Assembly: GCA_963666425.2 (NCBI GenBank)
Contig: OY762825.2
Location: 160,001 to 224,000 of the forward strand
Length of the DNA stretch: 64,000 nt
Source: Bacillota bacterium
Lineage (GTDB): Bacteria > Bacillota > JAAYKD01
Direction: 5' to 3'
The position numbers and the translations under genes were made by a program. Positions 3,728 to 59,987 of the stretch are shown piece after piece (the first letter of the stretch is position 1; every line of letters starts with the position of its first letter). The notes under the pieces were generated by a model, which made no database searches, was not told the origin of the DNA, and saw nothing but the letters and a program-made list of their open reading frames with translations.

Positions 3728-4123
3728 ATGTCAAATCCTATTCGTGTTTTAATTGCAAAACCTGGCTTAGATGGACATGACCGCGGCGCTAAAGTAATTG
3801 CCCGCGCCTTCCGCGATGCCGGTATGGAAGTCATTTATACCGGCTTGCGCCAAACTCCTGAACAGATTGTAGAAACTGCGATTCAAGAAGACGTTGACCT
3901 GATCGGTTTGTCCTGTCTTTCCGGCGCTCATAATACTTTATTCCCCAGAATTGTCGAATTGCTGAAAGCAAAAGATGCGGCCGATATCAAAGTGATTGGC
4001 GGCGGTGTGATCCCCAGCGAAGATATTCCTTTCCTGAAGGAAAGCGGTATTCTGGAGATTTTCACTCCCGGTACCACAACCACGACCTGCATCGATTATG
4101 TTCTGAAAAATGTCCGAAAATAA
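3728..4123 (+). CDS. Methylmalonyl-CoA mutase small subunit, cobalamin-binding domain
   Basis: GLDGHDRG DxHxxG B12 motif, [15 protein letters not shown]. Confidence 0.95.
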
Positions 4124-5513: not shown

Positions 5514-5534
5514 AACCATCAGGAGGTACCACTT

Positions 5535-36258: not shown

Positions 36259-37329
36259 ATGCAGACCATCTTAGTGCTCAACCCCGGTTCCACTTCCACC
36301 AAAGTGGCGCTGTTTCAGGACAAAAACAAGCGGTATGAGTGTAATTTGCAGCATGCGTCCGCTGTTTTAAAACAATTTCCTCAGATCAATGATCAGATCG
36401 AACTGCGCAAAGCGGCGGTCTTAGCTTATTTACAAGAGATTGGTTTTGATGCCAAAGCGTTGACTGCCATCGCCGCCCGCGGCGGGGTGATCGGTCAATT
36501 GGAAAGCGGCGCATATCGGATTGATGCAGCCTTAGCCCAAGCTTCGCGACTTTCCCCGGCACCGCATGCCTCCAATTTGGCGCCGATTATCGCCTACGAA
36601 TTATCTGAGCAGTGGCAGCGGCCGGCCTATATCTATGATCCTGTCTGTGGCTGCGGCATACCTGAATCGCTCTATACGATTTCCGGGATCAAAGAACTGC
36701 CCAGACCGTTTTTAACCCATGTTCTGAACAGCAGAGCGGTTTGTTTTGAATATGCTGCCCGTGAAGGAATTGATGTCCTGCGCAGCAGTTTTATTGTGAC
36801 GCATCTGGGCGGCGGTATCACCAGCAATCTGATTCGCAACGGCAAAATTCTGGATTTGGTGGGAGACGATGAAGGCACTTTTTCACCGGAACGCTCCGGT
36901 GGTGTGCCTTGCCGTGCTTTGGTCAAATTATGTTATTCTGGCCGCTATACGGAAAGAGAAATGCAGACGCTGCTGAAAGGCAAAGGCGGTTTGGTCGCTT
37001 ACCTCGGCAGCAATGATTTTATCGAAGTGGAAAAGCGAGCCTATGATCAGCAAGACGCAGAAGCCTTGCTGCTGATCCAGGCGTTGGCACTGCAGATTGC
37101 CAAGGATATCGGTTCATTAGCGACCGTGGTCAACGGTGAGGTGGATGCGATCCTGCTGACGGGAGGTTTGGCGCATTCCGCCAGGCTTTGCGGCCTGATC
37201 ACGCAGAGAATTCGCTTTTTGGCTCCTGTTGCCGTGCTGGCCGGTTCGCGCGAAATGGAAGCCTTGGCTTTCGGTGTGCTGCGGGTTTTAAATGGTGAAG
37301 AAGCGGCACACACTTTTCAGGAGGCATGA
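36259..37329 (+). CDS. buk: Butyrate kinase
   Basis: NPGSTSTK, HASNL, H.LN.RAV, HLGGG, FSPERSG, LTGGLAHS, EMEAL. Confidence 0.92.
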   Translation: MQTILVLNPGSTSTKVALFQDKNKRYECNLQHASAVLKQFPQINDQIELRKAAVLAYLQEIGFDAKALTAIAARGGVIGQLESGAYRIDAALAQASRLSPAPHASNLAPIIAYELSEQWQRPAYIYDPVCGCGIPESLYTISGIKELPRPFLTHVLNSRAVCFEYAAREGIDVLRSSFIVTHLGGGITSNLIRNGKILDLVGDDEGTFSPERSGGVPCRALVKLCYSGRYTEREMQTLLKGKGGLVAYLGSNDFIEVEKRAYDQQDAEALLLIQALALQIAKDIGSLATVVNGEVDAILLTGGLAHSARLCGLITQRIRFLAPVAVLAGSREMEALAFGVLRVLNGEEAAHTFQEA

Positions 37330-37389
37330 AAGCTGCTGAAAACCGGCGAGTGGAGCTTGAGCAGAATGAACTGGGAGGGAGACCGAACC

Positions 37390-38721
37390 ATGGATCTTTT
37401 TGATTTGGCGGCTGCGGACGACAACAAACGCAGCGAGCCGCTGGCCTCGCGCATGCGGCCGCAGACTTTGGATGAAATCATCGGACAGGAAGCAATCATC
37501 GGCAAAGGAACCCAACTGCGCCGTGCGATCGAGGCGGACCGCATCGGTTCGATTATTTTCTACGGTCCGCCCGGCAGTGGGAAAACGACCATTGCCCGTC
37601 TGATTGCCCATTACACCAAAGCGGAATTTCATTCGCTTAGCGCGGTGTCTGCCGGCGTTGCCGATGTAAAAAAAGTGATCGCCGACGCGGCGGATTTTCG
37701 CAAAATGTACCGCAAAAAAACTATCCTCTTTGTGGATGAGATTCATCGCTTCAACAAGGCGCAGCAGGATGCTTTGCTCTCGGCGGTGGAAGAGGGGATC
37801 ATCGGCCTGATCGGCGCCACCACGGCCAATCCTTTTTTTGATGTCAACTCGGCGCTCCTGAGCCGAGCGCGAATTTATAAATTGAACCCTCTGACAGCGG
37901 TGAGTCTGGAAACCATCCTGCGGCAGGCAATGAGCGATAAAGAACGCGGTTTGGGCGAACTGCCTTTAGAAATTGAAACGGAAGCGATGCAGCACCTGAT
38001 CAACAGCGCCAACGGCGATGCCCGCAAAGCGCTCAATGGTTTGGAACTGGCAGCGCTGACGACAGCACCGGGAGGGAACGGTAAAATCCAACTGACACTG
38101 GAGATCATCGCGGAAGCGATGCAGAGCAAAGCCTTACGCTATGATAAAGACGGCGATCAGCATTATGACATTATTTCGGCTTTTATCAAATCGATGCGCG
38201 GCAGTGATCCGGATGCGGCTTTGTTTTGGCTGGCTGCCATGCTGGCAGCGGGGGAGAGCCCCCGTTTTATCGCCCGACGCGTGGTGATCTGTGCCAGTGA
38301 AGATGTCGGTAATGCCGACCCCATGGCTTTGTTGGTAGCCAATGCCGCTGCGCAGGCGGTTGAGTTGATCGGTCTGCCGGAAGCACGCATTAATCTGGCG
38401 CAGGCCGTTTCTTATGTCGCCTCGGCTGCCAAAAGCAACGCCTCTTACAAAGCCTATGAAGCGGCTGCTGCCGCAGTCGAACAGGCGGAAAACATTGAAG
38501 TACCGCTGCATCTGCGCGACGCCAGTTATCAAGGGGCAAAATCGTTCGGCCACGGCCAGGGTTATCAGTATGCGCATGATTATCCGGAGCACTTTGTCAA
38601 ACAGCAGTACTTACCGACTGCGCTGCAGGAAGCTAGTTTCTACCAACCGACAGAAAACGGTCAGGAAGCTAAGATTAAAGCGCGCTTACGGCGGCTTTGG
38701 AGAGATCGTTATGATTTTTGA
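37390..38721 (+). CDS. rarA: Replication-associated recombination protein A
   Basis: [46 protein letters not shown]. Confidence 0.95.
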
Positions 38722-39334
38722 GTATTTTGTGCCCGATCATCCCGCCTCCGTGAAAATTGCTGTGGGGCTCTGCCGTTTCATAGGTAATGCAGCCGAAGTA
38801 GAGAAGGAAGCAGATATAAAAAATTTCCTGGAGGAAATGAAAAGAAAATATCCGGACGCTTCGCATCACTGTTGGGCCTACCGGCTCGGTTATGACAATC
38901 GCGCCACCTTTCGTTACAGCGATGACGGTGAGCCGTCACAAACGGCAGGTGCTCCGATTCTGACCGCCATCGACCATCTCAAGCTGACCAATACAATGGT
39001 GATTGTCACACGTTATTATGGCGGCGTCAATCAGGGGGTCGGCGGCTTGATCCGGGCATACCATGCGGCGGCAGCCGCTGTGCTGCAGGAAGCCGGCTGC
39101 AAGACTGTAACGATCCTTACCGAAATTAGAATTCCCTGCCGTTATGATCAAATCGGTTTGGTCACACGGGAATTGGAAGCGATCCATGCCGGCATTGTTG
39201 CCACAGAATATCAAATGGAAGTGTTGGTACAGGCAAAAATCCGTCCGGTGGACCTGGCACGCTTCTCGGCGCGCCTGTTTGATTTATCCAGCGGCACCAT
39301 TCAAGTAATAAGAACAGAGGAAGAAGCAGAGTGA
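38711..39334 (+). CDS. YigZ/IMPACT family protein
   Basis: ASHHCWAY, SDDGEPSQTAG.P, VTRYYGG...G.GGL.RAY; ATG 38711 overlaps the rarA end. Confidence 0.88.
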   Translation: MIFEYFVPDHPASVKIAVGLCRFIGNAAEVEKEADIKNFLEEMKRKYPDASHHCWAYRLGYDNRATFRYSDDGEPSQTAGAPILTAIDHLKLTNTMVIVTRYYGGVNQGVGGLIRAYHAAAAAVLQEAGCKTVTILTEIRIPCRYDQIGLVTRELEAIHAGIVATEYQMEVLVQAKIRPVDLARFSARLFDLSSGTIQVIRTEEEAE

Positions 39335-40437
39335 TGAAAAAACAACGGGTACTGATGGCGATGAGCGGCGGTGTGGACAGTTCCTTAGCCGCTTGTTTAT
39401 TGCAGGAGCAAGGTTATGAAGTGATTGGAGCGACAATTCGCAATTGGACCCCACCCGGATGGGAAGAATTGACCGCTGAGGTGGGCGGCTGCTGTTCACT
39501 TTCCACGGTAGAGGATGCCAGACGAGTGGCGTTTCAGCTGGGGATTCCTTTTTATGTGCTGAATTTCGCCGATGCTTTTGAGAATGAAGTAGTCAAGCCT
39601 TTTGCCGCAGCCTATCTGGCGGGGGAAACCCCGAATCCTTGCGTGCTCTGTAATAAGACCATGCGTTTTGGTTTGCTTTATCATAAAGCGAGAGAATTGG
39701 AAGCCGATTTTGTTGCCACCGGTCATTATGCCCGTGTGCACTATGCCGACGAGCGTTATCATTTGCTGAAAGGGCTCGATGCCAAAAAAGATCAAAGTTA
39801 TATGCTCTATACCGCAACGCAGCAGGCTCTGGCCATGACACTGTATCCGCTTGGCGCTTACAACAAGGAACAGACCCGACAAATGGCACGTGAGAGGGGT
39901 TTGGCGGTCGCGGGGAAACCGGACAGCCAGGATGTCTGCTTTATCCCGGATGGCAACATCGAAGGATTCCTTGCTGCTTATCGACCCGGCAATTATGCGG
40001 GTGAGATCGTTTACCGTGACGGACGGATTCTGGGCAGACATACAGGCTATCAGCAGTTTACGATCGGACAAAGAAAAGGGCTTGGTCTTGCCTGGCCGCA
40101 GCCGCTCTATGTACTGAAGATTGATGCCGTCAGCAAAAGGGTCATCGTTGCTGAAAAAGAATTCCTCTACAGCAACCGCTTACAGGCCGATCAGCTGAAT
40201 TGGATTGCCTTTGATGCGCTGCAGGAACCCTTGCAGGTATCAGCCAAAATTCGTTATGCGGCAAAGCCGGTGGATGTGCTGATCAGTCCGTCTTGCGACG
40301 GCAACTGCAGCGTTGAATTTAAAGAAGAGCAGCGGTCGGTTACGCCCGGTCAGGCCATTGTATTTTATAAAGGCGACGAGGTGCTCGGCGGCGGCAGGAT
40401 TCGTCAAATATTCGGTGAAGAGGAGAGAGAAGCATGA
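39331..40437 (+). CDS. mnmA: tRNA 2-thiouridylase MnmA
   Basis: AMSGGVDSS, TPNPCVLCN, ATGHY, KDQSY, TIGQRKGL, TPGQ. Confidence 0.96.
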   Translation: MMKKQRVLMAMSGGVDSSLAACLLQEQGYEVIGATIRNWTPPGWEELTAEVGGCCSLSTVEDARRVAFQLGIPFYVLNFADAFENEVVKPFAAAYLAGETPNPCVLCNKTMRFGLLYHKARELEADFVATGHYARVHYADERYHLLKGLDAKKDQSYMLYTATQQALAMTLYPLGAYNKEQTRQMARERGLAVAGKPDSQDVCFIPDGNIEGFLAAYRPGNYAGEIVYRDGRILGRHTGYQQFTIGQRKGLGLAWPQPLYVLKIDAVSKRVIVAEKEFLYSNRLQADQLNWIAFDALQEPLQVSAKIRYAAKPVDVLISPSCDGNCSVEFKEEQRSVTPGQAIVFYKGDEVLGGGRIRQIFGEEEREA

Positions 40438-40700
40438 TAGAGACACAAACGATTGATTTTTGTGAAGATAACTTACGTTCAGTGGCAGGCGCTGCCGAAA
40501 CGGCAGAAAAAATCAAAGCAGCGCTGCGGGATACACCGCTGCGTTTTTATACGCAGCGGTGTATCAATGCCTGCCGACCGTGCCATCGCAGCAGTTTAAT
40601 CTTAAGATTAAACGATGAATTGATCGAAGCTGAAACAAACGAAGAAATCATGGAAAAAATACTAAAAAAATTCAACCAAAGCGCTTGCGAAAATAGTTAG
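40434..40700 (+). CDS. DUF1450/YuzB-like small Cys-containing protein
   Basis: IDFC..NL and CxxxCxxC...LN.E.IEA.T.EE pattern. Confidence 0.6.
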   Translation: MIETQTIDFCEDNLRSVAGAAETAEKIKAALRDTPLRFYTQRCINACRPCHRSSLILRLNDELIEAETNEEIMEKILKKFNQSACENS

Positions 40701-40713
40701 AATGTGTTATATT
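40685..40713 (+). promoter_or_regulatory. SigA promoter of tRNA-Leu
   Basis: TTGCGA-17 bp-TATATT with extended TG. Confidence 0.65.
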
Positions 40714-40734
40714 CTTGATGCGCCAGAAAAACAT

Positions 40735-40820
40735 GCCGGAGTGGCGGAATGGCAGACGCACTTGACTCAAAATCAAGCGTATTTACGTACATGCCGGTTC
40801 AAGTCCGGCCTTCGGCACCA
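40735..40820 (+). tRNA. tRNA-Leu(CAA)
   Basis: GCCGGAG acceptor stem, D-loop GGAATGGCAGAC, anticodon arm CTTGA-CTCAAAA-TCAAG, long variable arm, GGTTCAAGTCC T-arm, encoded CCA. Confidence 0.96.
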
Positions 40821-40821
40821 T

Positions 40822-40872
40822 AACAGTTAAGGCAACTGATACAATCGTATCAGTTGCCTTAACTGTTTTTTA
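40822..40872 (+). terminator. Perfect 21-bp hairpin terminator after the tRNA
   Basis: AACAGTTAAGGCAACTGATAC-AATC-GTATCAGTTGCCTTAACTGTT followed by a T-tract. Confidence 0.85.
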
Positions 40873-40919
40873 TGCCCCCCGAAATGAATGGAAAGCAGAA
40901 GCTTATTACAGCGAACAAA

Positions 40920-41225
40920 AAGTGGCTTAAACCTCTTACCTCTATGGCAGGATATCTCACCTGTTCGCTTAAAAAAATGTCGTTCAACTTGGCGATATTT
41001 GACCGAAACGCTGCAAACAAGGTTTCTGACGAGTTGCCTGATATTAAAAATAAATACATAGGTGGTCATTCGAGGGGGGGAATGGCAAGCAGTTATGCTG
41101 CAAATAATAAAGATAAGATCAAAGGTAATATTTTTCTCGTCGATAAGCAGAGAAGACCAACAGGATATAGCAGTAAAAGTGATTTTAGACTCCATACAGG
41201 AGAAATACAAAGAATGATGTTTTGA
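40920..41225 (+). pseudogene. Degraded alpha/beta hydrolase remnant
   Basis: M.FNLAIFD.NAA...YIGGHSRGG (GxSxG)...DKIKG.IFL, then a C-terminal ISREDQQDIAV segment in another frame; no proper start and an internal deletion. Confidence 0.6.
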
Positions 41226-41591
41226 TGTCACTTCATCATAAACAATATTGTAATTAGACAAGTGAAAAGAGGATCAATAGGAAAGCTGCACTTATTTATT
41301 TTTCAATTGAAGGTAACACGAAATATGTCGCAGAATAAATAGTAAAAGTATTAGATGCAGACATGATACAGAGGATGCCGGCAAAGAAATATCCAACGGG
41401 TAAAGTCAGAAAATTTTTAGGGTGTGAGAAAAGTGCTGCTTTTAAAGAAAAATGCATGCCTTTCTGTTGATTATCTATAGCGGAGTTTTCAGCAACGATG
41501 TTCTTTGATGATATAATAACTGCATCGCGGCAAGAGTCTAAAAAGGGTACCAATCAAGAAATTTAGAACAAAACGGAAGGAGGATTTTTAA

Positions 41592-42383
41592 ATGGAACTA
41601 GATCAATTTGCACGATTACGCAGGTTTAATTTGATTATGGGGGCGTTGCACTTTGTTCAGGGACTGGCGATGCTTTTTCTTGCAACTTCGGTTATTCAGA
41701 ATATTGCTGAGTTCAAGCCGACAATTATTCAGTTTTATCTGACGTTTGATCCGCAATCCCAATCACTTGTTTCTGCTTCGAGAACACTTTTTGATTTGCC
41801 GTTTGGTATTTTAGTGGCGATTTTTCTTTTGCTATCGGCCTTCTTTCACGGACTGATTGCTTTACCAAAAGGGATGAATGCGATCTATAACAGAGATTTG
41901 GCAAAGGGTATTAATAAATTCCGCTGGTTTGAATACTCTCTTAGCTCATCCATAATGATCGTTTTGATTTCCACTCTATTTGGCATATATGATATTGCTA
42001 CCTTATTATTGATTTTTATCGTCAATGCTTCCATGAATCTGTTTGGTTTGGTTATGGAACAATTGAACGAAGGCAGCAACAAAGACAATGTGCGATGGGG
42101 ACCTTTTATCTGGGGTTCGCTTGCAGGGATTGCTCCCTGGATAACGATTTTGTTATATATGTTTGGTACGGGTGAATTCAGTCGGGTTCCTTGGTTTGTC
42201 TGGGCTATCGTCGGAACCTATTTCGTTGCATTCAACACGTTCCCTGTTAACATGATCCTGCAGTACAAGAGAATCGGGAAATGGAGCAACTACCTTTATG
42301 GAGAAAGAACGTACATTGTTCTAAGTCTTGTAGCCAAATCGATTCTGGCCTGGCTGGTTCTGTTTGGTGCAATGCAGCCATGA
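41592..42383 (+). CDS. Heliorhodopsin
   Basis: LRRFN..MG.LH..Q, SAFFH, N.FRWFEYSLSSS.M, GL.ME, YGER.Y..LSLVAKS.LAW (retinal-binding Lys); AAGGAGG RBS; extended -10 TGATATAAT at 41509-41517. Confidence 0.95.
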   Translation: MELDQFARLRRFNLIMGALHFVQGLAMLFLATSVIQNIAEFKPTIIQFYLTFDPQSQSLVSASRTLFDLPFGILVAIFLLLSAFFHGLIALPKGMNAIYNRDLAKGINKFRWFEYSLSSSIMIVLISTLFGIYDIATLLLIFIVNASMNLFGLVMEQLNEGSNKDNVRWGPFIWGSLAGIAPWITILLYMFGTGEFSRVPWFVWAIVGTYFVAFNTFPVNMILQYKRIGKWSNYLYGERTYIVLSLVAKSILAWLVLFGAMQP

Positions 42384-42432
42384 TTGGAGTGCCGGAGCGG
42401 TCATATGAGTTAATGGGCAGGAGGGCACATCA

Positions 42433-42828
42433 ATGAACCAATGGTATGAAAAACTAGCGAAACCCTCCTGGTCTCCTCCCGCCCGTCTTTTTGGCCCAGT
42501 ATGGACGGTGCTCTATATTGGCATTGTGTTCACATATGGTGTAGTAACGGTTATGTTTGCGAAATCGCAAATATCATGGTTTGTTATATTGCCATTTCTG
42601 GTAAATATATTGTTTAACTTTGCTTTTACACCTTTGCAATTTAAGCTTAGAAATAATAATCTCGCTCTTATCGATATTATTCTGGTACTTATCACGCTGA
42701 TTTGGGCTTTGCTAGCAATATTTCCGTTTGCTCCTTGGATTTCATGGGTAAACATTCCCTATCTGCTATGGGTTACCTTTGCCACAGTACTGCAATCAAG
42801 TATTACCTGGCTGAATAGATCAATATGA
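42433..42828 (+). CDS. tspO: TspO/MBR family tryptophan-rich sensory protein (short form)
   Basis: WY..L.KPSWSPP..LFGPVWTVLY, N..FT, LALIDI, PYLLWV.FA; AGGAGG RBS. Confidence 0.9.
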   Translation: MNQWYEKLAKPSWSPPARLFGPVWTVLYIGIVFTYGVVTVMFAKSQISWFVILPFLVNILFNFAFTPLQFKLRNNNLALIDIILVLITLIWALLAIFPFAPWISWVNIPYLLWVTFATVLQSSITWLNRSI

Positions 42829-42889
42829 GATGACTGCCTAATCGGTTACATACATAGAAGGGATCGGCACAGATCCAGAAGGAGTCGAG

Positions 42890-43216
42890 ATGAATAGAAG
42901 AATGAAACGAGCGCTCATTGGCGGGGCACTGCTGGGACTTGTCTGTGTGGTGGGAGCATATGTTAGGTCTGGGTTTACCGCTTCTCCGATATTTGTGTTC
43001 TCACTCTGGTACAACCGGGTTATCCTCGGTCTGGTCGTAGGTGCCCCCTGGATTGTTATGGTCCGAAGTAAGGCATTGTTACGTGGCGCTGTTCTTGGGC
43101 TTATGGTTTCCTTTGCATTCTAAAGTTCTACCGGATTTCAAGATCATATAAGTTTTGTAGCAGGAATTTTGTATGGCGTGATACTGGAAGGATGGCTTAG
43201 CCGACCTGAAAAATAA
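42890..43216 (+). pseudogene. Small multi-TM membrane protein interrupted by an in-frame TAA at 43121
   Basis: AAGGAG RBS; the same frame continues after the stop as SSTGFQDHISFVAGILYGVILEGWLSRPEK*, adding one more TM segment. Confidence 0.65.
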
Positions 43217-43365
43217 ATGGAATAGAGAAAAAGTATAAAGCTTATTAGTTGGAGTGCTACGATAAAAGTAGAGTCTGAATCGCGGGGAGATGCTATACTA
43301 AAAAGTATACGTATAAGGAGAGCGATAGAGGATGTTGTTGCGTCCAAGTAGCTTTGGCTGCAAAC

Positions 43366-44324
43366 TGACAAGAACTTTTGACCGCATTTTTACAGCAACC
43401 ATGACCGCTTTTTGCGAAGCTCTTAACTCATTTCACCTTCAATCACCAGACGAACCATATGGTCATCAATAATTCGGTGTTTACCAGTTGCGCCATACAA
43501 TAAGCAATTGGTGCAGAGCTTGTTAATCAGGTGCGGGATACCGGTAGAATAAAGATAGATTTCCTGAATCGCCGCATCGGTAAAGAGATCGCGCTCCACT
43601 CCTGCATAGCGTAACTGGCTTTGGATAAACGCAGCTGTTTCAGCTTTATCCAAGGACTGTAATCGGTATAGAATATCAATGCGCTGCCGGACGGACGGCC
43701 ACTTCTTCGGCTTTTTGCGATTGCAGTATTGAGGTTCACTCCTTCTGTTTTACTCTTAACAGAAGAATACCTTATCCCTTAAACAAGCAGCAATACCGAA
43801 CGGGTCTGTGGCAGTAAATTTGAATTGTGCACAATGGATTCTATAGTGCAGCTGCAGTGCCGCCGATAAGGAACGATGCAAGCCGGTAATTCATGATAAA
43901 TCTTGGCGCAGTCTCTACATTGCAGCCGCCGGATGATCAGGATGATTCGTTCACCGCTTGACTTAATCAACTTTCGCTTACGACTCCCGATTACTTTTAT
44001 AGTTCCTCCGCAAACGGGGGAGGCACTTTCTTCTTTGCTTCTTACATAAAAATTGCTTCGTTTTCACTCTTGCGCTCAAGGGAAAAATTTGATACAAGTA
44101 TTATGCTTTTGATGAGACACCCCTTGGGCTCTTGTGCTGGTTACACATTGAGCTCCTTGTTGAGGGGTGTCTTTTCCTTTCTCTTTTTGGCCATCATACC
44201 AAACAACTCTCGGTCAGGCAATCTTAGCATTTTGCGGCCTGTTTGAGCTGGCTATAACAATCAGACCACAATATGATGCGATTATTATGGTCAAAGTATC
44301 TCTCTAACCACTATGTTACTGTCA
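43366..44324 (-). mobile_element. Internally deleted transposon/IS remnant (DUF6431-like Zn protein, start of a DDE transposase, C-terminus of an ExeA-like AAA ATPase)
   Basis: TGACA at 43366 and TGTCA at 44320 with repeated TGACC motifs; fragments PVCGG..VIGSRKR..IRRLQC..C..HELP (about 43800-44050) and RQRID...FTDAAI..I...STGIP..INKLC (43423-43690). Confidence 0.7.
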
Positions 44325-44499
44325 GAACCTTTTTAATCTGCATTGAGAAAAATGACAGCATCAATTATCCTACGCTGCATAAGCTGCTCGGTGTATCACC
44401 GGAAATTTGGCTTCCGTTCTTAAAATATGCTGAATTATCCCAGAACCTAAAAACCAAACTTAATGAGTCGAGTGTAAAACTGGGAAAGCTTAATCCTCT

Positions 44500-45693
44500 T
44501 TATGGCAGATAGAAAGCGTCCATATCGTTTTCCCATCCGTTGACGCAACTTGATAAAAACCGTACCGCATTGTTAAGAACATCCATATCAATATGTTCTG
44601 TAGTATCATCAGAGGAATGGAGAACGGTATCGAGCAGACCAAATATGTTACTCGCAGTAATGGCGACGGTGGGTACACCATAGGTGGCGAATATCATATG
44701 ATCGCCCATCGGCCATGGCTTAATTCGTTCTATGTCTGTTATTTTTTTTGCACGCTCCATAATCCTATTCTCGATTTTTTTTGAACACGAATAGAACGAA
44801 ACAGATGTGGCGCTGTTCTTTAACCCGATACCGTCCACATTTATAGCCAAGATGTATTCCGTCGAAAGATAGCCCATAAATGCCATTTCTCCGGGATTGG
44901 AATAGTAGTCCTCCCCGTTAAATAGAACGATTTCGATTTGGAAAGGATAGTGCGTGCCCGAAAGAGATTCCGCGAAAGCCAGTAGAGCGGACACGCCGGA
45001 AGCGTCGTCAAGAGCGCCGGGGGTCGCCGGTTTTGTGTCAATATGCGCCGAAAAACACACCTTGTCATGTTTCGTCCCATAACTAGCAATCACGTTATGT
45101 GCCTTTACCGGAATACGCTCGGTGTGGATGGTCAGCTTCGCCCGCCTGTCAGAACTTTGCGAAAAGACATCCAGCATATCCGAGCATACTACAGCGCACG
45201 GAATGTTAAAATCCCCGTCCTGTATAATGTGTTCTTTACCCGAAATAGCCGTAATGATAGCAATTGGATTCTTTTCTTCCAGCAACGCTATGATTTGCTT
45301 GTGTTCGTCAGGGTTATAAAACTCAAAATTTTTCGGCATAAAGGGTTCTTTGCACAAATCGCCATGTAAGACCGCTATTTTTTCCGTTAGCTCCGCGTTC
45401 CGGAGTGCGTCCACCGTGTCAATACAAATAAACTCCGCAGCAACATCGCATGGCAGAGAATATTCCGCTGGTTCCACCGGTATTTCCCGATTGTCAACCA
45501 GCAGCGCGGCACCGGAGTTTATCCAATCCATGCAGTCAAACTCTTGTTTTCGTACCTGGAGCCCGCATTTTTGGAAGGCCTCAAAAGTGTACTCAACAGC
45601 AGCTTTATTCTTCGCAGAGCCGGTTGGCCTTGCCCCGATGGTTTTACAGAGCATCTCCATGTTGCTCTGTAATGAAATAACGTGATTCTTCAA
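44500..45693 (-). CDS. M28 family metallopeptidase with PA-like insert, no signal peptide
   Basis: RPTGS..N, SAHIDTK..TPGA.DDASG, FNGEDY, N.DG.G, GDH, H...D; TTG start after AAGGGGTG (track start 45702). Confidence 0.85.
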   Translation of the reverse strand: MKNHVISLQSNMEMLCKTIGARPTGSAKNKAAVEYTFEAFQKCGLQVRKQEFDCMDWINSGAALLVDNREIPVEPAEYSLPCDVAAEFICIDTVDALRNAELTEKIAVLHGDLCKEPFMPKNFEFYNPDEHKQIIALLEEKNPIAIITAISGKEHIIQDGDFNIPCAVVCSDMLDVFSQSSDRRAKLTIHTERIPVKAHNVIASYGTKHDKVCFSAHIDTKPATPGALDDASGVSALLAFAESLSGTHYPFQIEIVLFNGEDYYSNPGEMAFMGYLSTEYILAINVDGIGLKNSATSVSFYSCSKKIENRIMERAKKITDIERIKPWPMGDHMIFATYGVPTVAITASNIFGLLDTVLHSSDDTTEHIDMDVLNNAVRFLSSCVNGWENDMDAFYLP

Positions 45694-45779
45694 ATAAAAC
45701 ACCCCTTTGTAAAATTAGTGATTCCAGTACAAATCCTCATCCGGCTAAATTCTTGACCAAAATTGCAAATATCAAAACC

Positions 45780-45941
45780 TCAGCCGCTCGTCTTGGCGGC
45801 ATTTCTCCGGGGAATAGTGAAGAAGCTCAATAGCAGAAGCAGAATCCCGCATACGCGAATCACATGCTGAATCTTTACCGCATCGACAAGCGGCCCGAAC
45901 AACGCCATGCCAAGCGACAGGAATCCGCTCTACATCACCCC
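45780..45941 (-). pseudogene. C-terminal relic of a Mef-like MFS efflux transporter
   Basis: Reads GVM*SGFLSLGMALFGPLVDAVKIQHVIRVCGILLLLLSFF, resembling the last two TM helices of Mef-type MFS proteins; not in the ORF track. Confidence 0.6.
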
Positions 45942-45983
45942 GTTTGCAGAAATTCATTATTGACTTTCTTTGCGAAAAATCGC

Positions 45984-48530
45984 TCAAGCATTTATCAGCG
46001 CGCATAGACACGCACCCGTTTGAGAACGGGCTGTTTTTGCCACCGTTTCCGGCGTACCCTGCACGATAATCTCGCCACCGGCGTCGCCGCCCTCCGGCCC
46101 GAAATCAACCACCCAATCGGACATGGCAATGACATCGAGATTGTGTTCTACGCAAATCACGGTGTTGCCAAGCTCTACCAATTCATTCAATAGCGCAACC
46201 AGCTTTTTGACGTCGTGGGGATGAAGCCCCGTAGTCGGTTCATCCAAAAGATACAGCGAATACCCGCTTGTGCGCTTTCCCAGTTCCTTTGCCAGCTTTA
46301 TGCGCTGCGCTTCGCCGCCCGATAAGGTCGTGGCGGACTGTCCAAGGCTCAAATATCCAAGGCCGACTTTCTGCAAAACGGACAGCCGATCCAAAATGGG
46401 GGGTACGTCGCAGAACACAGCGGCAGCCTCCGCAATGGTCATTTGTAAAATGTCGGAAATGCTGAATCCTTTGTACTCTACTTCTAAAATGCTTTTCTGG
46501 TACCGTCGCCCGTGGCAGGCGGGGCATTTAACCTGAACATCCGGCAGGAAATGCATAGATATGGTAAGTTCACCGCTCCCCTCGCATTTTTCACATCTGC
46601 CTCCCGGAACATTAAAGGAGAAATGTTTTGGCAGCAGTTTTTTCTTTTTGGATTCATCCAAAGAGGCATATAAATCTCTGATGTAGGAAAAAACATCAGT
46701 ATAGGTCGCAGCGTTGGAGCGGCTTGTTCTTCCAATGGGCGATTGGTCGATGGTGATAATATCGCTGACATTCTCTAATCCAGAAATTTCTAGGTGGTCG
46801 GGCTTTTCTTTGGAATGACCGAAATAAATCTCAGCTTCGCAGCCAAGAATATCGAACAGCAGTGTGGATTTCCCGCTGCCGGATACCCCGGCCAGAGAGA
46901 CGAGCATTCCCAAGGGTAAGTCCACATCAATGTCTTTCAAATTGTGTTTATGTGCGTTAGATATTGAAATGCTTTTTCCGTTGCCGGTTCTTCTTTTCGT
47001 GGGAATATTGATTTTATCCATACCAGAAAGACAACGTCCCGTATCTGAATATTCACAGGCTGCGATTTCATCAGGTGTTCCTGCGGCGACAATCTCACCG
47101 CCGCCCTTACCGGCTTCTGGGCCAAAATCGACAATATAGTCGGCAGCTTGAATAATCTCAATATCATGCTCAATAACCAATACCGTGTTGCCCAAATCCC
47201 GCAGTTTCTTCAAAACTTCAATCAGTCTTTTCGTATCGCGGGCATGGAGTCCGACAGTCGGTTCATCAAGTACATATAAAACCCCTGTCAGACCGCTGCC
47301 CAAAAGAGAGGCCAGTCTAAGCCGCTGGGCTTCACCCGCCGACAATGTGACGGCGGCGCGTTCCATGTTCAAGTATCCCACACCGACATCCAAAAGCCTC
47401 TTGATTCGCTGTTCTAAATCGTCAATCACCGGTTTTGCGATCAGCAAAGCCTCCTGGGTTGTGAATGAGGGCAAATTCTTGACCCAGTCTAAAACATCGT
47501 CTAATGATTTTTTGGACAGTTCAATAATACTGATTTCCCCAACTGTTACGGCTATGCTTTCTTTTCGTAAGCGTACTCCACCACATTCAGGGCAAACCTC
47601 TTCATGGAATAAACCACCTAATTTTTCCTTTGAACCGCTCCCCATCTCAGAATGCCGCCTTACGAGATTGGTAACAACGCCCTCAAACCGCCCCTCTGGA
47701 ACTGTTTTGGGTGGTTTGACACCGGGGAAATGCCTGCAAAATTGCGGGCTTAATACACCGTACAAAAGATAGTCCATCTGTATCTGCCCATAATTTTTCA
47801 GCGGCTGATTGATACTGATAGGAAACCCGTAGAAGCTGCCCGCGTTTTCAATAGCCTCCGAATATCGGTCAATGTGAAACTTATCCCAAATGCGAACCCC
47901 ACCGTCGCGAATACTCAAATCAGTATTTATAATCCGTTCAAGGTCGGGTGTATTTACAACCCCAAGCCCCCTGCATGCCGGGCAAGCTCCCTCTGGTTTG
48001 TTAAAGGAAAAATGGCTCATTAACAGTTCAGGGAGCTTTTCACCGCAGGAGGGACAAACGATCATGTTTTCATCCACATCGGAGTTGCCGGTACTGTCTT
48101 CCAACGGTTCATCCCACTGCATGGAATCTGTTTCCATTTCCATTTCAAAGGGTTGGCGTATCAGTTCACCGCAACGAGGGCATTTTCTAACGCCGAGTTT
48201 AGCAAACAGTATCCGCAGATAAGTGAAAACCTCCGTGACGGTGCCTACCGTAGAACGGGGATTGCGGTTACTATTTCTTTGGTCAATGCTGATGGATGGG
48301 GACAAGCCGATAATGGCGTCAACCTTTGGTTTGCTGATGAAATCTGTTACCATCCCCATGGATTCCATATATTGCCTTTGACATTCTTTTTGAAGGGTAT
48401 CCAATGCAAGCGTTGATTTACCGCTTCCCGAAAGACCGGTAAATACCACCAGCTTGTTTTTGGGAATCCGCAGCGAGATGTTTTTGAGGTTATTTTCCCT
48501 CGCTCCCTTTATTTCAATATACGTATCCAT
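45984..48530 (-). CDS. Class II UvrA-like ABC ATPase (DrrC/Ecm16-like)
   Basis: Two ABC modules (GLSGSGKS...LSAGEAQR; GVSGSGKS...LSGGEAQR), Zn fingers, only about 40 aa between CPRC and CPSC where the UvrB-binding domain would lie; GGAGG RBS. Confidence 0.88.
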
Positions 48531-48581
48531 TTGATTTCCTCCCAATATTTTTCTTATGGCACATAACATTATTCGCTCTTC

Positions 48582-48623
48582 ATTATAGAGAAAAACGCGA
48601 CAGGTTCTTGACTTTCCTTGCGA
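48582..48623 (-). promoter_or_regulatory. Activator-dependent promoter of the uvrA-like gene
   Basis: TCGCA-N7-TCAAGA in the -35 position, 18 bp, TATAAT; the same site occurs at 45751, 45958 and 49646. Confidence 0.65.
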
Positions 48624-48688
48624 TTTTTCTGCGTGAAAAATGACGCCCGGATAAACCGAGCGCCATATTATGACGACACACAGGTTTT

Positions 48689-49597
48689 CTATTTGTTTAT
48701 TTGGCGAACCGGGCGCGCTTCAATGCAGCCTCGATACCCCTGTGGCTCCATCTGAAACCGTGGCGCATCCTCGTTGGCCCATTCAAAACCGTATAGTTCA
48801 GGTGAGTAGTTTTTCATCACTTCCCACAAATCCGCAATCGCCTCATCAAAATGCTCGTCCTCAAAGGGCTGCCCTTGAAAAACTATCATTTTGCATGGGG
48901 GTAATGGTATAAGCTCGAAGCCATCCGGCACAACACCGGTATAGTCGGCGGGGACTTCGACGCCCTGTGCGTAAGTGGAGGATCCGGGTGTGCGAAAATT
49001 GTCCGGCAGCCACACGCCGATTGGTTCATATAACGCTTCTTTTACGCTGCACAGCAATCCCCAATTATCACACCCGACTTCCTCACAATACTCAAAATAA
49101 TCCTTGGCGTTCGTACCTCTTTTCAATATCAGATTTCTTGCCGGCCGATCGATAACTTGAATAAAAACTGTTTGATTTGCCTGTCTTCTTTTCATTTGAT
49201 ACTCTCCTTTCAAAAAGTAGAGATACCGTTCACGAATAGAGTTGGGCATAAACAGATAGATAGGAGTAGGGTTTTTGCTGTACTTATGTGGCGTTACGCC
49301 AAACTCTTTTGAAAACGCTCTCGTAAATCCCTCGTGAGAATCGAACACGAAATCGAGTGCCACATCAATGACCTTGACCTTTTCGTCCCTTAACTTCAAA
49401 GCGGCGCGGGTAAGCCTGAGTGTACGTATGTAGTCAAAAGGAGATTTTCCGACAAACTCCCTAAAAAGCCTTGCGCAATGAAAAGGAGAATAGCCTGCAC
49501 TTTTTGATAAATCATGTAAGGTGATAGAGCTTTGGAGGTTCTGTTCAATATAGTCCTGCATTCTTTGTACAGCTTCAATATTACCTAATTTTTCCAT
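48689..49597 (-). CDS. AraC family transcriptional regulator with C-terminal effector-binding (GyrI-like) domain
   Basis: N-terminal double HTH (YIEQNL..ITL..L...GYS; VALD..FDSHEGFTRAF...FG.TP..Y); C-terminal DYFEYCEEVGCD.WG...PRFQ.EP.G.RG. Confidence 0.88.
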   Translation of the reverse strand: MEKLGNIEAVQRMQDYIEQNLQSSITLHDLSKSAGYSPFHCARLFREFVGKSPFDYIRTLRLTRAALKLRDEKVKVIDVALDFVFDSHEGFTRAFSKEFGVTPHKYSKNPTPIYLFMPNSIRERYLYFLKGEYQMKRRQANQTVFIQVIDRPARNLILKRGTNAKDYFEYCEEVGCDNWGLLCSVKEALYEPIGVWLPDNFRTPGSSTYAQGVEVPADYTGVVPDGFELIPLPPCKMIVFQGQPFEDEHFDEAIADLWEVMKNYSPELYGFEWANEDAPRFQMEPQGYRGCIEARPVRQINK

Positions 49598-49764
49598 CTG
49601 CTCACCCCGTCAGTATAAAGAATGATAGCACAGCGCAAAGATAAATCTTGATTTGGACTGCGATAATTATTTATTTTCTTGCTTCATAAGGACAGAAAAC
49701 GCATCTCACTGGTGGAAATTTGATTGCACTGACAATGCCAGTTGCATTATTTTAAGTAATGGCT

Positions 49765-52700
49765 TTAGTCAATTGAGCAAACTAAGGGTAATGATAAAGG
49801 TGTTATCGTATCTGCTATTTCCAGAATGAAAATTTTTAGATTGTAACCAAGCTCAGTGGCATCACTTACCGAGACATTATTAAAATCAATCGTATTATCA
49901 CCAATTTGCAAGATACCGGCATGTGAGGTTAGGGAAACAAGCTTGTTATTACTACTATAAATGGCTAAAAACACATTTACGGTGGAAGAAGAATCTTTAT
50001 GATTATAAATGTATACGTGAGCATCGCCCGATAAAGAATTGATTGAGCGTGCGAGATTATTATTGATCATAGCTGTATATAAATAATCGGAAGAATCTGT
50101 AGTATATCCAGACCAGGATGCCGTATCAAATCCTGTTGATTTTTGCAGATAATGAATCACAAACTCAGTTGATAAATTATCAAACACAGATGTCCCTAAA
50201 CTGGGTGCATTACCGTAGAAATACATCGAGTTTAATTTGCTACAATTAAAGAACGCATTATTATCAATACTCGTAACATTCTTGGGGATGCATAGAACTT
50301 CTAAGCTGCTGCAATTGTAAAAGGCATAAGCAGCAATGCTGACTAAACTTTCAGGAAGAGTAACACCTGTTAAGCCAGTACAATGACTGAAAGCGTATGT
50401 ACCTATTTTTGTTACAGCGATATCATTGATCGTAATCGGTATGACTACAGCAGCGTCAGAGCCGATATAATCAAGAATTGTTCCCGCATCCGGATCAAAT
50501 CTAAAATTCATTGTTTCTATGATAGCAGATGCAGAGCTTGGAGCATACACTGCGTGTGAATAAGCACTCAAAATGGAGGTTGTAAAGCCAAGAGCATTTT
50601 CCTGGTAATAGAGTATAAAGCTCTCATTCGTATCATAGCGAACATCACCAAATGTAAATAAACCAAGGTTAGCTGGTACATCACCTTCAAAATAGGCAGC
50701 CACTAAATTTCTGCACCTGCGAAACGCGTCATCTTCCAGATTAGTAAGACTGCTTGGCAGTGTTATCCTGCTTAAGCTATCGCAATAACTAAAAGCTCCA
50801 ATTTCAATGTCTGTTACGCCATTTGCGATCGTTACGCTTCTTAATTTCGAGCAATCGGCAAAAGCCCCTTGGCCGATATTTGATACACTTCCGGGTATGT
50901 TTACAGATACTAAATTTTGGCAATTATAAAACGCCTCGGTTTCGATACACTTTACTCCATTTGCTATTATGATTGTTGTCAAATTGATGCAATCATAAAA
51001 CATTCTCTCACTAATACTTTCCAAACTGCCAACGATGTATGCGCTTCTTAAATTATCACAGCCTGAAAATGCAAAACTACCAACATAGGTTACCTTGCTT
51101 GGTATCGTGATACTCGTTAAATAAATACAACTGCTAAACGCTCCTTCACCAATGCTTTCCAAGTTGGCGGATAGGTTTACCGCTGTTAGCCCGCAGAAAC
51201 CCGAAAAAGCATTTTTCCCTATCGTAATCACGCTATTCGGTATGACGATATCGGATAAAAGAAGGCACCCAGAAAATGCATAGTCCCCTATGCTGATTAT
51301 TTTATCCTGCAGGTCGACGTGAGTTAATTTGCTGCAGCCGGAGAACATAGAATTACCGATGTTTGTTAAATTAGCCGGCAGCACGATACTGACCAAATTC
51401 GTGCAATTCTCAAATACACCGTTACCGAAGTTTGTCAAACTGGCAGGCAGTGTGATCTCGCTTAAACTGCTACAGTTAGAAAAGGCCATATTACTGATTA
51501 AGGTAACTCTACTCGGTATGTTTACTTCGTTAAGGTTAGTACAAAAAGCAAAAGTGCTTGATTTTATCTCTGTTATGTTATTGGAGAAAACGATATTTAT
51601 TAAGTCGCTGCAGCCAAAAAAAGCTCCTTTATCAATGCTTGTTATGCTGTCTGGCAGGGTTAGGTTTGTTAATCCAATACAACCGTAAAAAGCATAGGCG
51701 CCGATTGCTTCTACGCCGTTGGATATCCTAAGATCAGTCAAGCCACTGCAAAAAAAAGCATCAGAGCCAATTGTTTTGATATTTCCTGCCAGGATGACAC
51801 TGGCTAAACTTGCACAGGAAGAAAACGCTTTTGCACCAATGCTTGTAATCCCATCTGGAAGGCTAATCGAGCCTAAGCTGTAGCAATTTTGAAACATGCT
51901 CTCGGTGATGGCGGTGAGATTGCTGGGAAGTGTTACGGATCCTAGATTGATGCAGTCTTGAAAGGTGCAACTACCAATGAAGGTGAGACTGTTTGGCAGC
52001 GTCACTGCTGTTAAACTGCTGCAGCCTTGAAAAATGTTACTACCGATGCTGATTAAGCGATCTGGCAGGGTAATTGACATGAGATTGCTGCAGCCTTGAA
52101 ATACAGCATTCGCAAAACAGCTTATACTGTTAGGAATAGAGATCGACAATAAACTGCTGCAGTCTTGAAAGACACTCTCTTCCAGGCTGGTTAGGTTATT
52201 TGGAAGATTGATCGAGATTAATCGATTGCAGTTTTGAAAGGCATATTTACCGATAATGGTGACACTGTCCGGGATACTGATTGAGGTTAGGTTGAGGCAG
52301 TTCCGAAGAGCACCTTCGCTGATCGTATTTACGCCATTTGGTACTGTATAAGCACCACTCAAGGTAGTGGGAACGATCAGCAGTACTGACAGTTCTTTAT
52401 TAAAAAGTACACCGTTCAAGCTGGCGAAATACAAATTTCCGGCCTCCACTTCGATGGATTGTAAGCCGCTGCAATCCAAAAACGCACCACCACCCAGGCT
52501 GCTGAGACTGCTTGGCAGTGTGATGGAGGTTAACTGGCTGCAGCCTTGAAATGCGCAGCTGCCTATATTGATCAGACTATCGGGCAGGCTGACCGTACTT
52601 AAATTACTGCATAGATAAAAACTAAACATACCGATGCTGGTAACACCATTTGGGATGCTGACGGAGGTGAGATTCGTGCGCCAGCGAAAGGTATAATCAG

Positions 52701-52974
52701 CAATTTGTGTTACATTGACATTGTCTATCACACTGGGGATGACAATCGAACTATCGGAACCGTAATAAGCCGAGATGGTGCCGGTTGTTGGATCAAAAGC
52801 AAAATCAGCAGGATCCGTTACAGAAGCTTCGACAGACATGGAAGCAAGCAATTCAGGCCGAATTTGTGGTTTTTCAATTTGTTCTGCCAATACCATTGAA
52901 AAAGGAACCGTGATATAAAATAGCATACCAACTGCAAGAGCTATGACAAATGTCAATTTAGGTATTCTAAACAT
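49765..52974 (-). CDS. Secreted BspA/TpLRR-type leucine-rich repeat protein
   Basis: Signal peptide, many 22-23 aa repeats L.S..LP..LT.IG..AF..C..L, two F.FDP..GTI..Y.GSD..VVIP cap modules; GGAGGG RBS. Confidence 0.9.
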   Translation of the reverse strand: MFRIPKLTFVIALAVGMLFYITVPFSMVLAEQIEKPQIRPELLASMSVEASVTDPADFAFDPTTGTISAYYGSDSSIVIPSVIDNVNVTQIADYTFRWRTNLTSVSIPNGVTSIGMFSFYLCSNLSTVSLPDSLINIGSCAFQGCSQLTSITLPSSLSSLGGGAFLDCSGLQSIEVEAGNLYFASLNGVLFNKELSVLLIVPTTLSGAYTVPNGVNTISEGALRNCLNLTSISIPDSVTIIGKYAFQNCNRLISINLPNNLTSLEESVFQDCSSLLSISIPNSISCFANAVFQGCSNLMSITLPDRLISIGSNIFQGCSSLTAVTLPNSLTFIGSCTFQDCINLGSVTLPSNLTAITESMFQNCYSLGSISLPDGITSIGAKAFSSCASLASVILAGNIKTIGSDAFFCSGLTDLRISNGVEAIGAYAFYGCIGLTNLTLPDSITSIDKGAFFGCSDLINIVFSNNITEIKSSTFAFCTNLNEVNIPSRVTLISNMAFSNCSSLSEITLPASLTNFGNGVFENCTNLVSIVLPANLTNIGNSMFSGCSKLTHVDLQDKIISIGDYAFSGCLLLSDIVIPNSVITIGKNAFSGFCGLTAVNLSANLESIGEGAFSSCIYLTSITIPSKVTYVGSFAFSGCDNLRSAYIVGSLESISERMFYDCINLTTIIIANGVKCIETEAFYNCQNLVSVNIPGSVSNIGQGAFADCSKLRSVTIANGVTDIEIGAFSYCDSLSRITLPSSLTNLEDDAFRRCRNLVAAYFEGDVPANLGLFTFGDVRYDTNESFILYYQENALGFTTSILSAYSHAVYAPSSASAIIETMNFRFDPDAGTILDYIGSDAAVVIPITINDIAVTKIGTYAFSHCTGLTGVTLPESLVSIAAYAFYNCSSLEVLCIPKNVTSIDNNAFFNCSKLNSMYFYGNAPSLGTSVFDNLSTEFVIHYLQKSTGFDTASWSGYTTDSSDYLYTAMINNNLARSINSLSGDAHVYIYNHKDSSSTVNVFLAIYSSNNKLVSLTSHAGILQIGDNTIDFNNVSVSDATELGYNLKIFILEIADTITPLSLPLVCSID

Positions 52975-53151
52975 AACAATCCCCTCCATCAAATTGATTA
53001 GAACCAATTAGGAATAATATACCATTTGTATCGATTAAAAGCAATATAATTTTACCAATATTATGCATAAAATATCGTAATCTGATGGAACAGTTGGAGA
53101 GAACACTATGTTAAAAGTATGAATATTAGTTTCTGAGGGTATTTCACTTGG

Positions 53152-53180
53152 TTGAAAAGTTAGCCATTACATAGTATAAT
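53152..53180 (+). promoter_or_regulatory. SigA-type promoter upstream of the flavoprotein pair
   Basis: TTGAAA-17 bp-TATAAT. Confidence 0.6.
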
Positions 53181-53402
53181 AAAGCAATCGTTCGGACCTT
53201 TGCTTTCTTTGTTTTCAAAAAAAACTGAAGTAAAAGATATAGCTGCAGGGAAGCATGATGCTGCAATATTCGCTTCTCCTACTTGTGACGATTTCCACCC
53301 TTGGCTGACACCAACGTAATCGAAAGAAGATTTGGTTTTATAAAACTGCCGCCATACACAGCAATAAGAAAATCTCTCCCGAGAAGAAAAGGAAGGTTAC
53401 CC

Positions 53403-54989: not shown

Positions 54990-54993
54990 CAGC

Positions 54994-56247: not shown

Positions 56248-56260
56248 TTTCTGCGTTTAA

Positions 56261-56338
56261 AAAGCCTGAGTCAGTGTCTTTTTTGACAACTCCGTTTTTT
56301 AGTGGAGCTTGTCTCTTTCAGACACTGACTCAGGCTTT
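56261..56338. terminator. Long bidirectional hairpin between convergent genes
   Basis: Perfect 19-bp arms AAAGCCTGAGTCAGTGTCT / AGACACTGACTCAGGCTTT enclosing an inner stem. Confidence 0.75.
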
Positions 56339-56398
56339 CCGCTATGCAGTTTTTTTATGTTATCATCTCATTTCCATTCGTTGTCTATTTCTTTAAGA

Positions 56399-57598: not shown

Positions 57599-57739
57599 AG
57601 CATCCTTCCTTTCCTGCAATTTGGCACAGTTCCTTAATATAACTCGGTGTAATCGAATCAAACATGGAACCAAAACGAAGAATAGTGTATAAAAATACTA
57701 TGAATTGATTTGATATACACGGATATTATATTATTCTAT

Positions 57740-57768
57740 ATCATATCAGCCCAAATGCTGTATGTCAA
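57740..57768 (-). promoter_or_regulatory. SigA promoter of rocD
   Basis: TTGACA-17 bp-TATGAT with extended TG on the minus strand. Confidence 0.75.
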
Positions 57769-57880
57769 GCCGGAGACTACAGATTATTCAACGGAAGCAC
57801 TTATTGTGCTTTAACGGCAAATGTGATATGATTATTTTGTTACAGTGCAAACTTATAAAAGTAGAGAAGGAGTGTTTTTA

Positions 57881-59872: not shown

Positions 59873-59987
59873 AAAACTGAAACCATCCGAAAAGTAAAGC
59901 TGAATGAATCGCCTTTCGGATGGTTTTGTTATGATCGCGCAGGAAATTTTCCAGCCGCTGCGGAATGATCAAGTGAGGTGATTCTAT

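Follow-up and report, generated by a model that had tools for sequence, protein, structure and literature searches.

We analyzed a 64,000-nucleotide stretch of DNA from a Bacillota bacterium (GenBank assembly GCA_963666425.2, contig OY762825.2, positions 160,001 to 224,000; hereafter, the window), which carries a heliorhodopsin (HeR) gene, a gene for a TspO-family protein and a gene for a small membrane protein (g3), one after the other on the forward strand (41592–43216). We found that the HeR and TspO genes are intact, that this TspO is a short form lacking the first transmembrane helix (TM1), and that g3 is interrupted by a nonsense codon. The comparisons described below show that HeR and the short TspO move jointly between unrelated hosts, as a 1.25-kb two-gene cassette under purifying selection. 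The reading that we favor, and that we hold to be possible rather than probable, is that the array is a horizontally acquired, composite light-stress module, in which HeR would modulate the short TspO, the ligands would be foreign to the host, and decay would proceed piecemeal.

The open reading frame (ORF) at 41592–42383 (263 amino acids) is, judging by its sequence, a heliorhodopsin gene. Its product scored 327.9 bits against PF18761 (cut-off 26.7), covering profile positions 1–242, and 301 bits against the NCBIfam equivalog NF038020 (cut-off 100). In an alignment with TaHeR (6is6), the two proteins have the same residues at the counterion (E114, in the RWFEYS motif of helix 3), at the Schiff-base lysine (K249, in the SLVAK motif of helix 7), and at H20 and H86, and these four residues are invariant across 41 aligned HeRs. 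Both the profile scores and the alignment agree with a first-pass annotation of this DNA, made from the sequence, which had called the gene intact from the same two motifs and both histidines. Retinal binding, an inverted topology and a slow photocycle are traits of the family and are predicted for this protein as well, which is 77% identical to the HeR of Trichococcus flocculiformis (locus L022). The ratio of nonsynonymous to synonymous substitution rates (dN/dS) was 0.04–0.06 for HeR, relative to its nearest relatives and cassettes, and 0.10–0.145 for TspO, relative to the nearest cassettes; the selection that the annotation had seen hinted at in both genes is therefore borne out as purifying.

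The TspO gene (42433–42828, forward strand) begins with an ATG 49 bp past the HeR stop codon, as had been described, and its 131-amino-acid product scored 97.5 bits against the TspO/MBR family profile PF03073 (cut-off 24). Only profile positions 21–145 were matched, and the protein aligned to residues 28–147 of RsTSPO and 32–155 of mouse TSPO. In the AlphaFold2 model (pLDDT 91.1), a short helix at the N terminus precedes four long ones, and Foldseek matched this model to RsTSPO (8e7z) and BcTSPO (4ryi) with a probability of 1.00, a TMq of 0.83–0.85 and a root mean square deviation of 2.3 Å. Thus, by the profile match, the alignments and the model alike, the protein does not have the five transmembrane helices of the TspO/MBR family. 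It shares with the canonical five-helix proteins (RsTSPO, 4uc1 and 8e7x; BcTSPO, 4ryi; mouse TSPO, 2mgy) the WY..L.KP.W.PP loop, helices 2 to 5 and a score above the Pfam cut-off, but in contrast to them it lacks TM1, begins right at the loop motif, and falls below the cut-off of the NCBIfam TspO equivalog NF047825 (62.7 bits; cut-off 180).

We rejected a local truncation as the source of this short form, since the homologs begin at the same motif and the frame upstream of the TspO start is closed at 42406. The nearest 120 homologs are mostly 129–136 amino acids long, and a set of 62 sequences shows no variation at W4, K10, P11, W13 and P15 of the loop-1 motif. Of the best 150 representatives (at 50% identity), half (75) span the query end to end; 48 of these are short (defined as 123–147 amino acids, with at most 15 residues ahead of the loop motif), 19 carry an N-terminal overhang of the canonical kind, and the remaining 8 are either fusions or longer proteins. 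These counts show that the TM1-less, four-helix TspO is a large natural subfamily, and a search of the literature by phrase for a four-helix TspO found no publication describing such a form. Among the relatives, we also noted tandem or fused proteins (P0252, P0245 and P0277), one of which has two TspO stretches in 239 amino acids, whereas others have 271–290 amino acids and a C-terminal short-TspO part. Separately, ORFs of 250–290 amino acids in many HeR-clade and Chloroflexota genomes weakly match the TspO profile, from position 22 or 32 to 144 (E = 1e-5 to 1e-12); none of these (for example, G103:C8:332431-332784) lies near HeR, and they may constitute a separate TspO-related family.

To compare the history of HeR with that of its hosts, we used MnmA, a housekeeping protein encoded by a flanking gene, as the point of comparison for transfer. 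We found that HeR is 92%, 91% and 95% identical to that of the window in three genomes (G061, G062 and G063, respectively) in which MnmA is 38%, 42% and 48% identical. A genome of the same genus (G001) has an MnmA 89% identical to that of the window and no HeR was found in it; it is also without TspO and g3, the site being empty. In a genome of the same family (G002), HeR is 56% and MnmA 65% identical. Nucleotide homology to three other loci (L008, L009 and L110) is unbroken over the HeR-TspO spacer and ends at the cassette edges, and contigs of a sequencing run from another study (X3) hold HeR-TspO and diverge from the window at 41565 and 42817. In a further locus (L105), the spacer and the last 15 nt of HeR are kept while HeR itself is gone, and homology is continuous into TspO. 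In a tree of TspO that we also built, support is good for 4 branches out of 36, too few to count the origins of the HeR linkage. Two further runs (X1 and X2, from one sample) contain, at lower depth, another variant of the HeR-TspO junction (42350–42669) that has 27 differences in 320 nt (~8%), which means that the sample also harbors the pair in another strain or species, related to this one.

The third gene, g3 (42890–43216, forward strand; 108 codons), starts 61 bp past the TspO stop codon and belongs to an unnamed family, for which we found 694 homologs, mostly of 106–113 amino acids, with the 120 listed being 76–87% identical. An in-frame TAA at codon 78 (43121–43123) leaves 77 codons of g3 to be read, with the frame staying open beyond it to 43216; codon 78 encodes Tyr in 13 of 13 aligned homologs. 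Past the stop, 27–28 of 30 codons remain identical to those of homologs, so the lesion is recent. Logan contigs of runs X1 and X2 cover the TAA site at a depth of ~6 and show no difference there, and theirs may be the source sample. Recoding of this TAA was rejected, because g3 itself ends in TAA (43214–43216) while HeR and TspO end in TGA. The AlphaFold2 model of an intact homolog (pLDDT 92) has four helices, with codon 78 lying in helix 3, so that the truncated product would lose helix 4. The small membrane protein that had been read here thus stands as an ORF at 42890 from a four-helix family, with the amendment that the gene is broken.

Comparisons with databases gave g3 no name. There was no match to its fold in the PDB at E ≤ 0.001 and no Pfam family above cut-off, and the clusters returned by the ESM Atlas were all labeled "hypothetical protein" and had no Pfam family. 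We also rejected an assignment to DUF2177 (PF09945), which is reported to be a characteristic neighbor of HeR (bioRxiv 10.1101/2021.02.16.431466; PMC11109279). DUF2177 resembles g3 in that both are small membrane proteins with several helices and no assigned function, and both accompany HeR in genomes, and there is a weak local resemblance between the two (hhalign probability 23.7%, E = 8.5e-4, over 38 columns only). However, g3 scored 17.8 bits, under the gathering cut-off of 26.9, PF09945 reached g3 loci only at E = 8e-4 to 7e-3, and genuine DUF2177 genes sit apart from g3, elsewhere in 32 of 50 HeR genomes; a profile search of the host genome found no DUF2177. In three loci of Proteiniclasticum type (L097–L099; ~3986–6068 in each), g3 follows genes for an extracytoplasmic function (ECF) sigma factor and a zf-HC2 anti-sigma factor on the same strand, and an aldo/keto reductase gene adjoins g3 in 5 of 20 g3 loci; these neighbors hint at a stress regulon.

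We surveyed gene neighborhoods from the side of HeR (the best 80 of 337 HeR-relative loci, with one genome per species) and from the side of TspO (the best 80 of 280 metagenome TspO-relative loci). TspO lies beside HeR in four of the 80 HeR loci, being intact in two (L008 and L009) and decayed in two, one of which has an 82-nt relic (L010) and the other a TspO 57% identical to that of the window and broken by a truly internal TGA (L041). From the other side, HeR lies upstream of TspO in one of the 80 TspO loci (L110), 60 of which had at least 850 nt upstream to inspect. We found g3 beside HeR in one of the 80 HeR loci (L042), and near TspO in 8 of the 12 TspO loci that are at least 68% identical and in none of the 68 others; these eight loci are without HeR. 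In five of the eight (L111, L112, L113, L116 and L117), g3 is directly downstream of TspO, and homology runs over the TspO-g3 junction in L112, L208, L094, L113 and L116. Moreover, TspO-g3 pairs occur far from HeR in two genomes (G073 and G163), and another (G098) has TspO with a g3 fragment. By this distribution, TspO and g3 form an older conserved unit, and the window cassette is still followed by the usual partner of its TspO clade, just inactivated by a single nonsense codon. Since HeR-TspO and TspO-g3 homology each cross their junctions elsewhere, the window joins two recurrent pairs, and all three pairwise adjacencies (HeR-TspO, TspO-g3 and g3-HeR) exist somewhere. A neighborhood search for the linkage, proposed along with the annotation, thus recovered HeR-TspO (L008, L009, L110 and run X3), while the combination with the third gene was met only in the window. 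Partner losses in related loci affect each gene in turn: g3 in L008, L009 and L110; TspO in L010 and L041; and HeR in L105.

The commonest neighbors of HeR within 3.5 kb in the 80 loci of its clade are photolyase (16) and an ABC transporter (11), followed by a tocopherol-cyclase-like gene, an old-yellow-enzyme gene and MsrAB (5 each). The photolyase, MsrAB, old-yellow-enzyme and tocopherol-cyclase-like neighbors share a theme of photodamage, which we count in favor of a light-stress module. The tocopherol-cyclase-like gene (PF14249) was seen directly downstream of HeR in L020, L021, L040, L054 (L054:6838-7812) and L064.

Since the class of the host has only 10 species genomes in the genome collection used, we examined the co-occurrence of these genes in a phylum-level sample, an even set of 401 genomes that includes the host (G000) and comprises 22 genomes with HeR and 379 without. 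We found g3 in 10 of these genomes (7 of 22 with HeR; 3 of 379 without), TspO at E ≤ 1e-10 in 35 (8 of 22; 27 of 379), and TspO of the short type in 7 (5 of 22; 2 of 379). Here, we called a TspO short-type if its match to the profile started no earlier than position 12 (12 in the host, at least 17 in the other six). Two of the seven short-type genes are broken; the TspO of G005 is not to be counted as broken by TGA, as that TGA lies upstream of the start and the gene is intact. The odds ratios were ~58 for g3 (Fisher P = 6e-8) and ~55 for short TspO (Fisher P = 6e-6), P-values that overstate the association because the genomes are related and not independent; counted by genus, the g3 table is 6, 7, 3 and 262. 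In 50 of the 80 HeR-clade genomes, g3 is present in 26, and strong TspO matches (E = 2e-27 or better) are present in 6, of which 4 are of the short type.

We also searched the host genome (98.5% complete, 6.85% contamination) for pathways that would supply ligands. The window holds no retinal-pathway gene, as had been noted, and the proposed genome-wide check for such genes found no match to phytoene synthase (PF00494) or RPE65-type oxygenase (PF03055), nor to photolyase, with controls that rang for all three; no Blh match (PF15461) was found either, with a control that was silent too, so that this result proves little. Likewise, neither hemB nor hemC was found, with controls that rang in 11 of 14 genomes. 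With none of these retinal, carotenoid, hemB and hemC genes found, both retinal and tetrapyrroles would have to come from outside, and it is unlikely that the cell handles porphyrins or corrinoids of its own. The annotation had proposed just such a coupling of photoreception to porphyrin or corrinoid handling by the host, and this part of its interpretation is not sustained.

The array lies in a 12.5-kb accessory island of low guanine-plus-cytosine (GC) content (40827–53374), which is absent from the same-genus genome G001. G001 aligns to the window over 37027–40826 and again over 53375–61609, with ~200 bp between the two blocks in G001; thus, 40827–53374 is a 12.5-kb insertion directly behind a tRNA-Leu gene (anticodon CAA; 40735–40820, forward strand; ARAGORN) that forms its left anchor. 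A terminator-like hairpin of 20 pairs followed by a T run (40822–40867, forward strand) sits right behind the tRNA gene. The GC content is 35%–45% over 40800–45000 and 46%–52% from there to the end of the profile at 49000, with 50%–55% in the DNA to the left. To the left of HeR is a fragmentary alpha/beta-hydrolase relic (40872–41225, forward strand; PF12695 positions 17–88 of 164 only), and beyond g3 are mobile-element relics in the form of short ORF fragments on the reverse strand (43423–43970), including a DUF6431 fragment at 43779–43970. The borders relative to G001, the low GC content, and the hydrolase and DUF6431 fragments all confirm the tRNA-linked island with relic-filled flanks that had been described earlier. 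Behind the broken g3, short stretches of 43250–43400 also occur on several other, longer contigs of runs X1–X4, with loose ends on both sides, a pattern suggestive of one end of a mobile element that is repeated. Further island content includes an M28 peptidase and, in the right part (45984–53007), a UvrA-like double-ABC ATPase of 861 amino acids, an AraC-type regulator of 302 amino acids and a 1080-amino-acid BspA-type leucine-rich-repeat protein with internal 69-nt periodic repeats. The island resembles known tRNA-linked genomic islands in its insertion 3′ of a tRNA gene, its low GC content, its absence from a same-genus genome and its mobile-element relics, but differs from them in two respects: Pfam scans of a subset of the island ORFs gave no integrase domain, and the right border shows no attachment (att) direct repeat of the tRNA end. 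The integrase and att repeats may have decayed.

Signals for expression are present in part. GGAGG-type ribosome-binding sites precede all three starts, in agreement with the strong sites that had been read there, and a scan found no terminator-like site between HeR, TspO and g3 outside coding sequence. The single extended −10 promoter that had been proposed fares less well. Its motif, TGATATAAT, is indeed there (41509–41517, forward strand), ~75 nt upstream of the HeR start, but our consensus scan lists no promoter upstream of HeR because the −35 element is poor. Promoter-like sites in the region (11) are not above shuffled sequences (7.8, standard deviation 3.2).

TspO proteins bind hydrophobic ligands, as is known for the family and apparent from PDB titles, and the known ligands of the family are tetrapyrroles. 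From the family, binding or photo-degradation of tetrapyrroles might be predicted for the window TspO as well. If the array is a light-stress module, HeR would bind scavenged retinal and sense light, and would modulate the short TspO in the membrane, as characterized HeRs act on the products of neighboring genes; the short TspO would in turn bind, or help destroy, photosensitizing hydrophobic pigments. Both the retinal and the tetrapyrrole ligands would come from outside the host, and the module would be optional, with different hosts losing it piece by piece. Direct regulation of TspO by HeR is suggested by analogy only, with three operons in which HeR has an operon-encoded partner. TfHeR (77% identical to the window HeR) is reported to help the photolyase of its operon (PMC9769723), and the other partners are a glutamine synthetase for AbHeR (PMC9529153) and the OmrDE ABC transporter for OcHeR (PMC11109279). 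The window has in common with these regulatory operons an intact HeR and a same-strand, non-rhodopsin gene a short spacer away, but its neighbor is a membrane protein of the TspO family and, unlike the TfHeR-photolyase case, its host has no photolyase by profile search. A prediction of the HeR-TspO complex from our own alignments scored 0.00 (mark, 0.32), which counts neither for nor against binding.

Several of our observations weigh against a light-stress module. HeR-TspO adjacency is rare, given the four HeR loci (two of them decayed) and one TspO locus in the two sets of 80, and three same-family HeR genomes (HeR 56% identical) have no TspO within 1.5 kb. The order HeR-TspO-g3 was found nowhere else in the loci examined, g3 is broken here, and it is missing after TspO in L008, L009 and L110. 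The TspO tree sets the window TspO apart from the other HeR-linked TspOs, on weak branches. With hemB and hemC not found, the host does not itself synthesize the classical TspO ligand. In a second phylum, we saw no association: among 150 Chloroflexota (with the center genome left out), g3 occurred in 0 of 20 genomes with HeR and 1 of 130 without, and TspO in 1 of 20 and 16 of 130, respectively, such that a link between HeR and g3 or TspO is not a general property of heliorhodopsins. Even within the phylum sample, co-occurrence could result from a shared habitat and a mobile gene pool. Finally, the promoter before HeR is a consensus match only, and no RNA data sets covering the stretch are listed.

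We considered that HeR, the short TspO and g3 might be separate light- or oxidative-stress accessory genes of one mobile pool or habitat, each working alone, which is the strongest of the alternatives and in our estimate a somewhat unlikely one. As this explanation would have it, none of the pairwise adjacencies is the majority arrangement, and the genes are lost independently of one another; moreover, the three genes are on three different contigs in G004, the flanks differ in every host, the Chloroflexota show no association, and the island is a mosaic with transposon relics. What this explanation does not readily account for is the 49-bp HeR-TspO spacer, which is short, is free of terminator-like sites and has been preserved, along with the two genes, from host to host. 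Furthermore, a chance adjacency of two single-copy genes among ~3000 is very unlikely, yet the adjacency recurs, even with a TspO as distant as that of L041 (57%).

Alternatively, the array might be a silent relic that came in with the island and is now being lost, as its neighbors are, with the low dN/dS reflecting earlier hosts. We consider this quite unlikely, since HeR and TspO are without lesion and keep all checked residues and good ribosome-binding sites, and since the second, ~8% divergent strain in the same sample keeps the HeR-TspO junction. The points that fit such a relic are the very recent nonsense codon in g3 (with 27–28 of 30 trailing codons identical), the gene fragments on both flanks, the missing retinal and tetrapyrrole pathway genes of the host, and the loss of TspO or g3 from sister cassettes. 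A more elaborate proposal is that the TM1-less TspO is a subunit that borrows its fifth helix from g3 or HeR, or closes its ligand pocket against one of them, in a light-gated pigment-handling complex of the three. We regard this as improbable; if true, it would give heliorhodopsin its first membrane-embedded ligand-handling partner and TspO its first defined bacterial partner. Least likely of all, and in our judgment very doubtful, is that the short TspO, normally together with g3, captures retinal, a carotenoid or a precursor from the surroundings and hands it to HeR: the host has no phytoene synthase or RPE65-type oxygenase (and no Blh was found, with its control silent), TspO proteins do bind hydrophobic ligands, and short TspO and g3 are enriched in the HeR genomes of the phylum sample, but no TspO is known to bind retinal, most HeR genomes of the clade are without short TspO (strong TspO in 6 of 50, short in 4 of the 6), and HeR remains intact where g3 and TspO are disappearing.

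The light-stress module remains, with these alternatives weighed, the reading that we prefer. Of the interpretation in the first-pass annotation, it keeps the genes, their spacing, the island, the selection on HeR and TspO, and the recurrence of HeR-TspO, and it departs from that interpretation in that the third gene is broken, the linkage is narrow, and handling of the cell's own porphyrins is unlikely. We found no publication that joins "heliorhodopsin" with "TspO" or TspO synonyms, in a literature search that covered text other than supplementary neighbor tables. In their main texts, so far as available and apart from supplementary tables, Bulzu et al. (PMC8612252), bioRxiv 10.1101/2021.02.16.431466 and PMC11109279 do not name TspO, and it is absent from the ten neighbor groups that PMC11109279 gives. 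Among our findings, the subfamily of short TspOs, the pairing of TspO with g3 as a unit, the co-occurrence counts and the null result in a second phylum are new.

Because the linkage is narrow, decaying in several hosts and absent in a second phylum, and because the ligand pathways are missing, we regard the locus as a lead rather than a rule. HeR function is largely open, and each of the few cases solved so far was worked out from the gene next to HeR; the role of TspO in bacteria is equally unsettled. For the bench, the locus offers a concrete triad, HeR together with two four-helix proteins, one a TspO and the other of an unnamed family, and the large TM1-less TspO subfamily bears on how the TspO ligand pocket is built.

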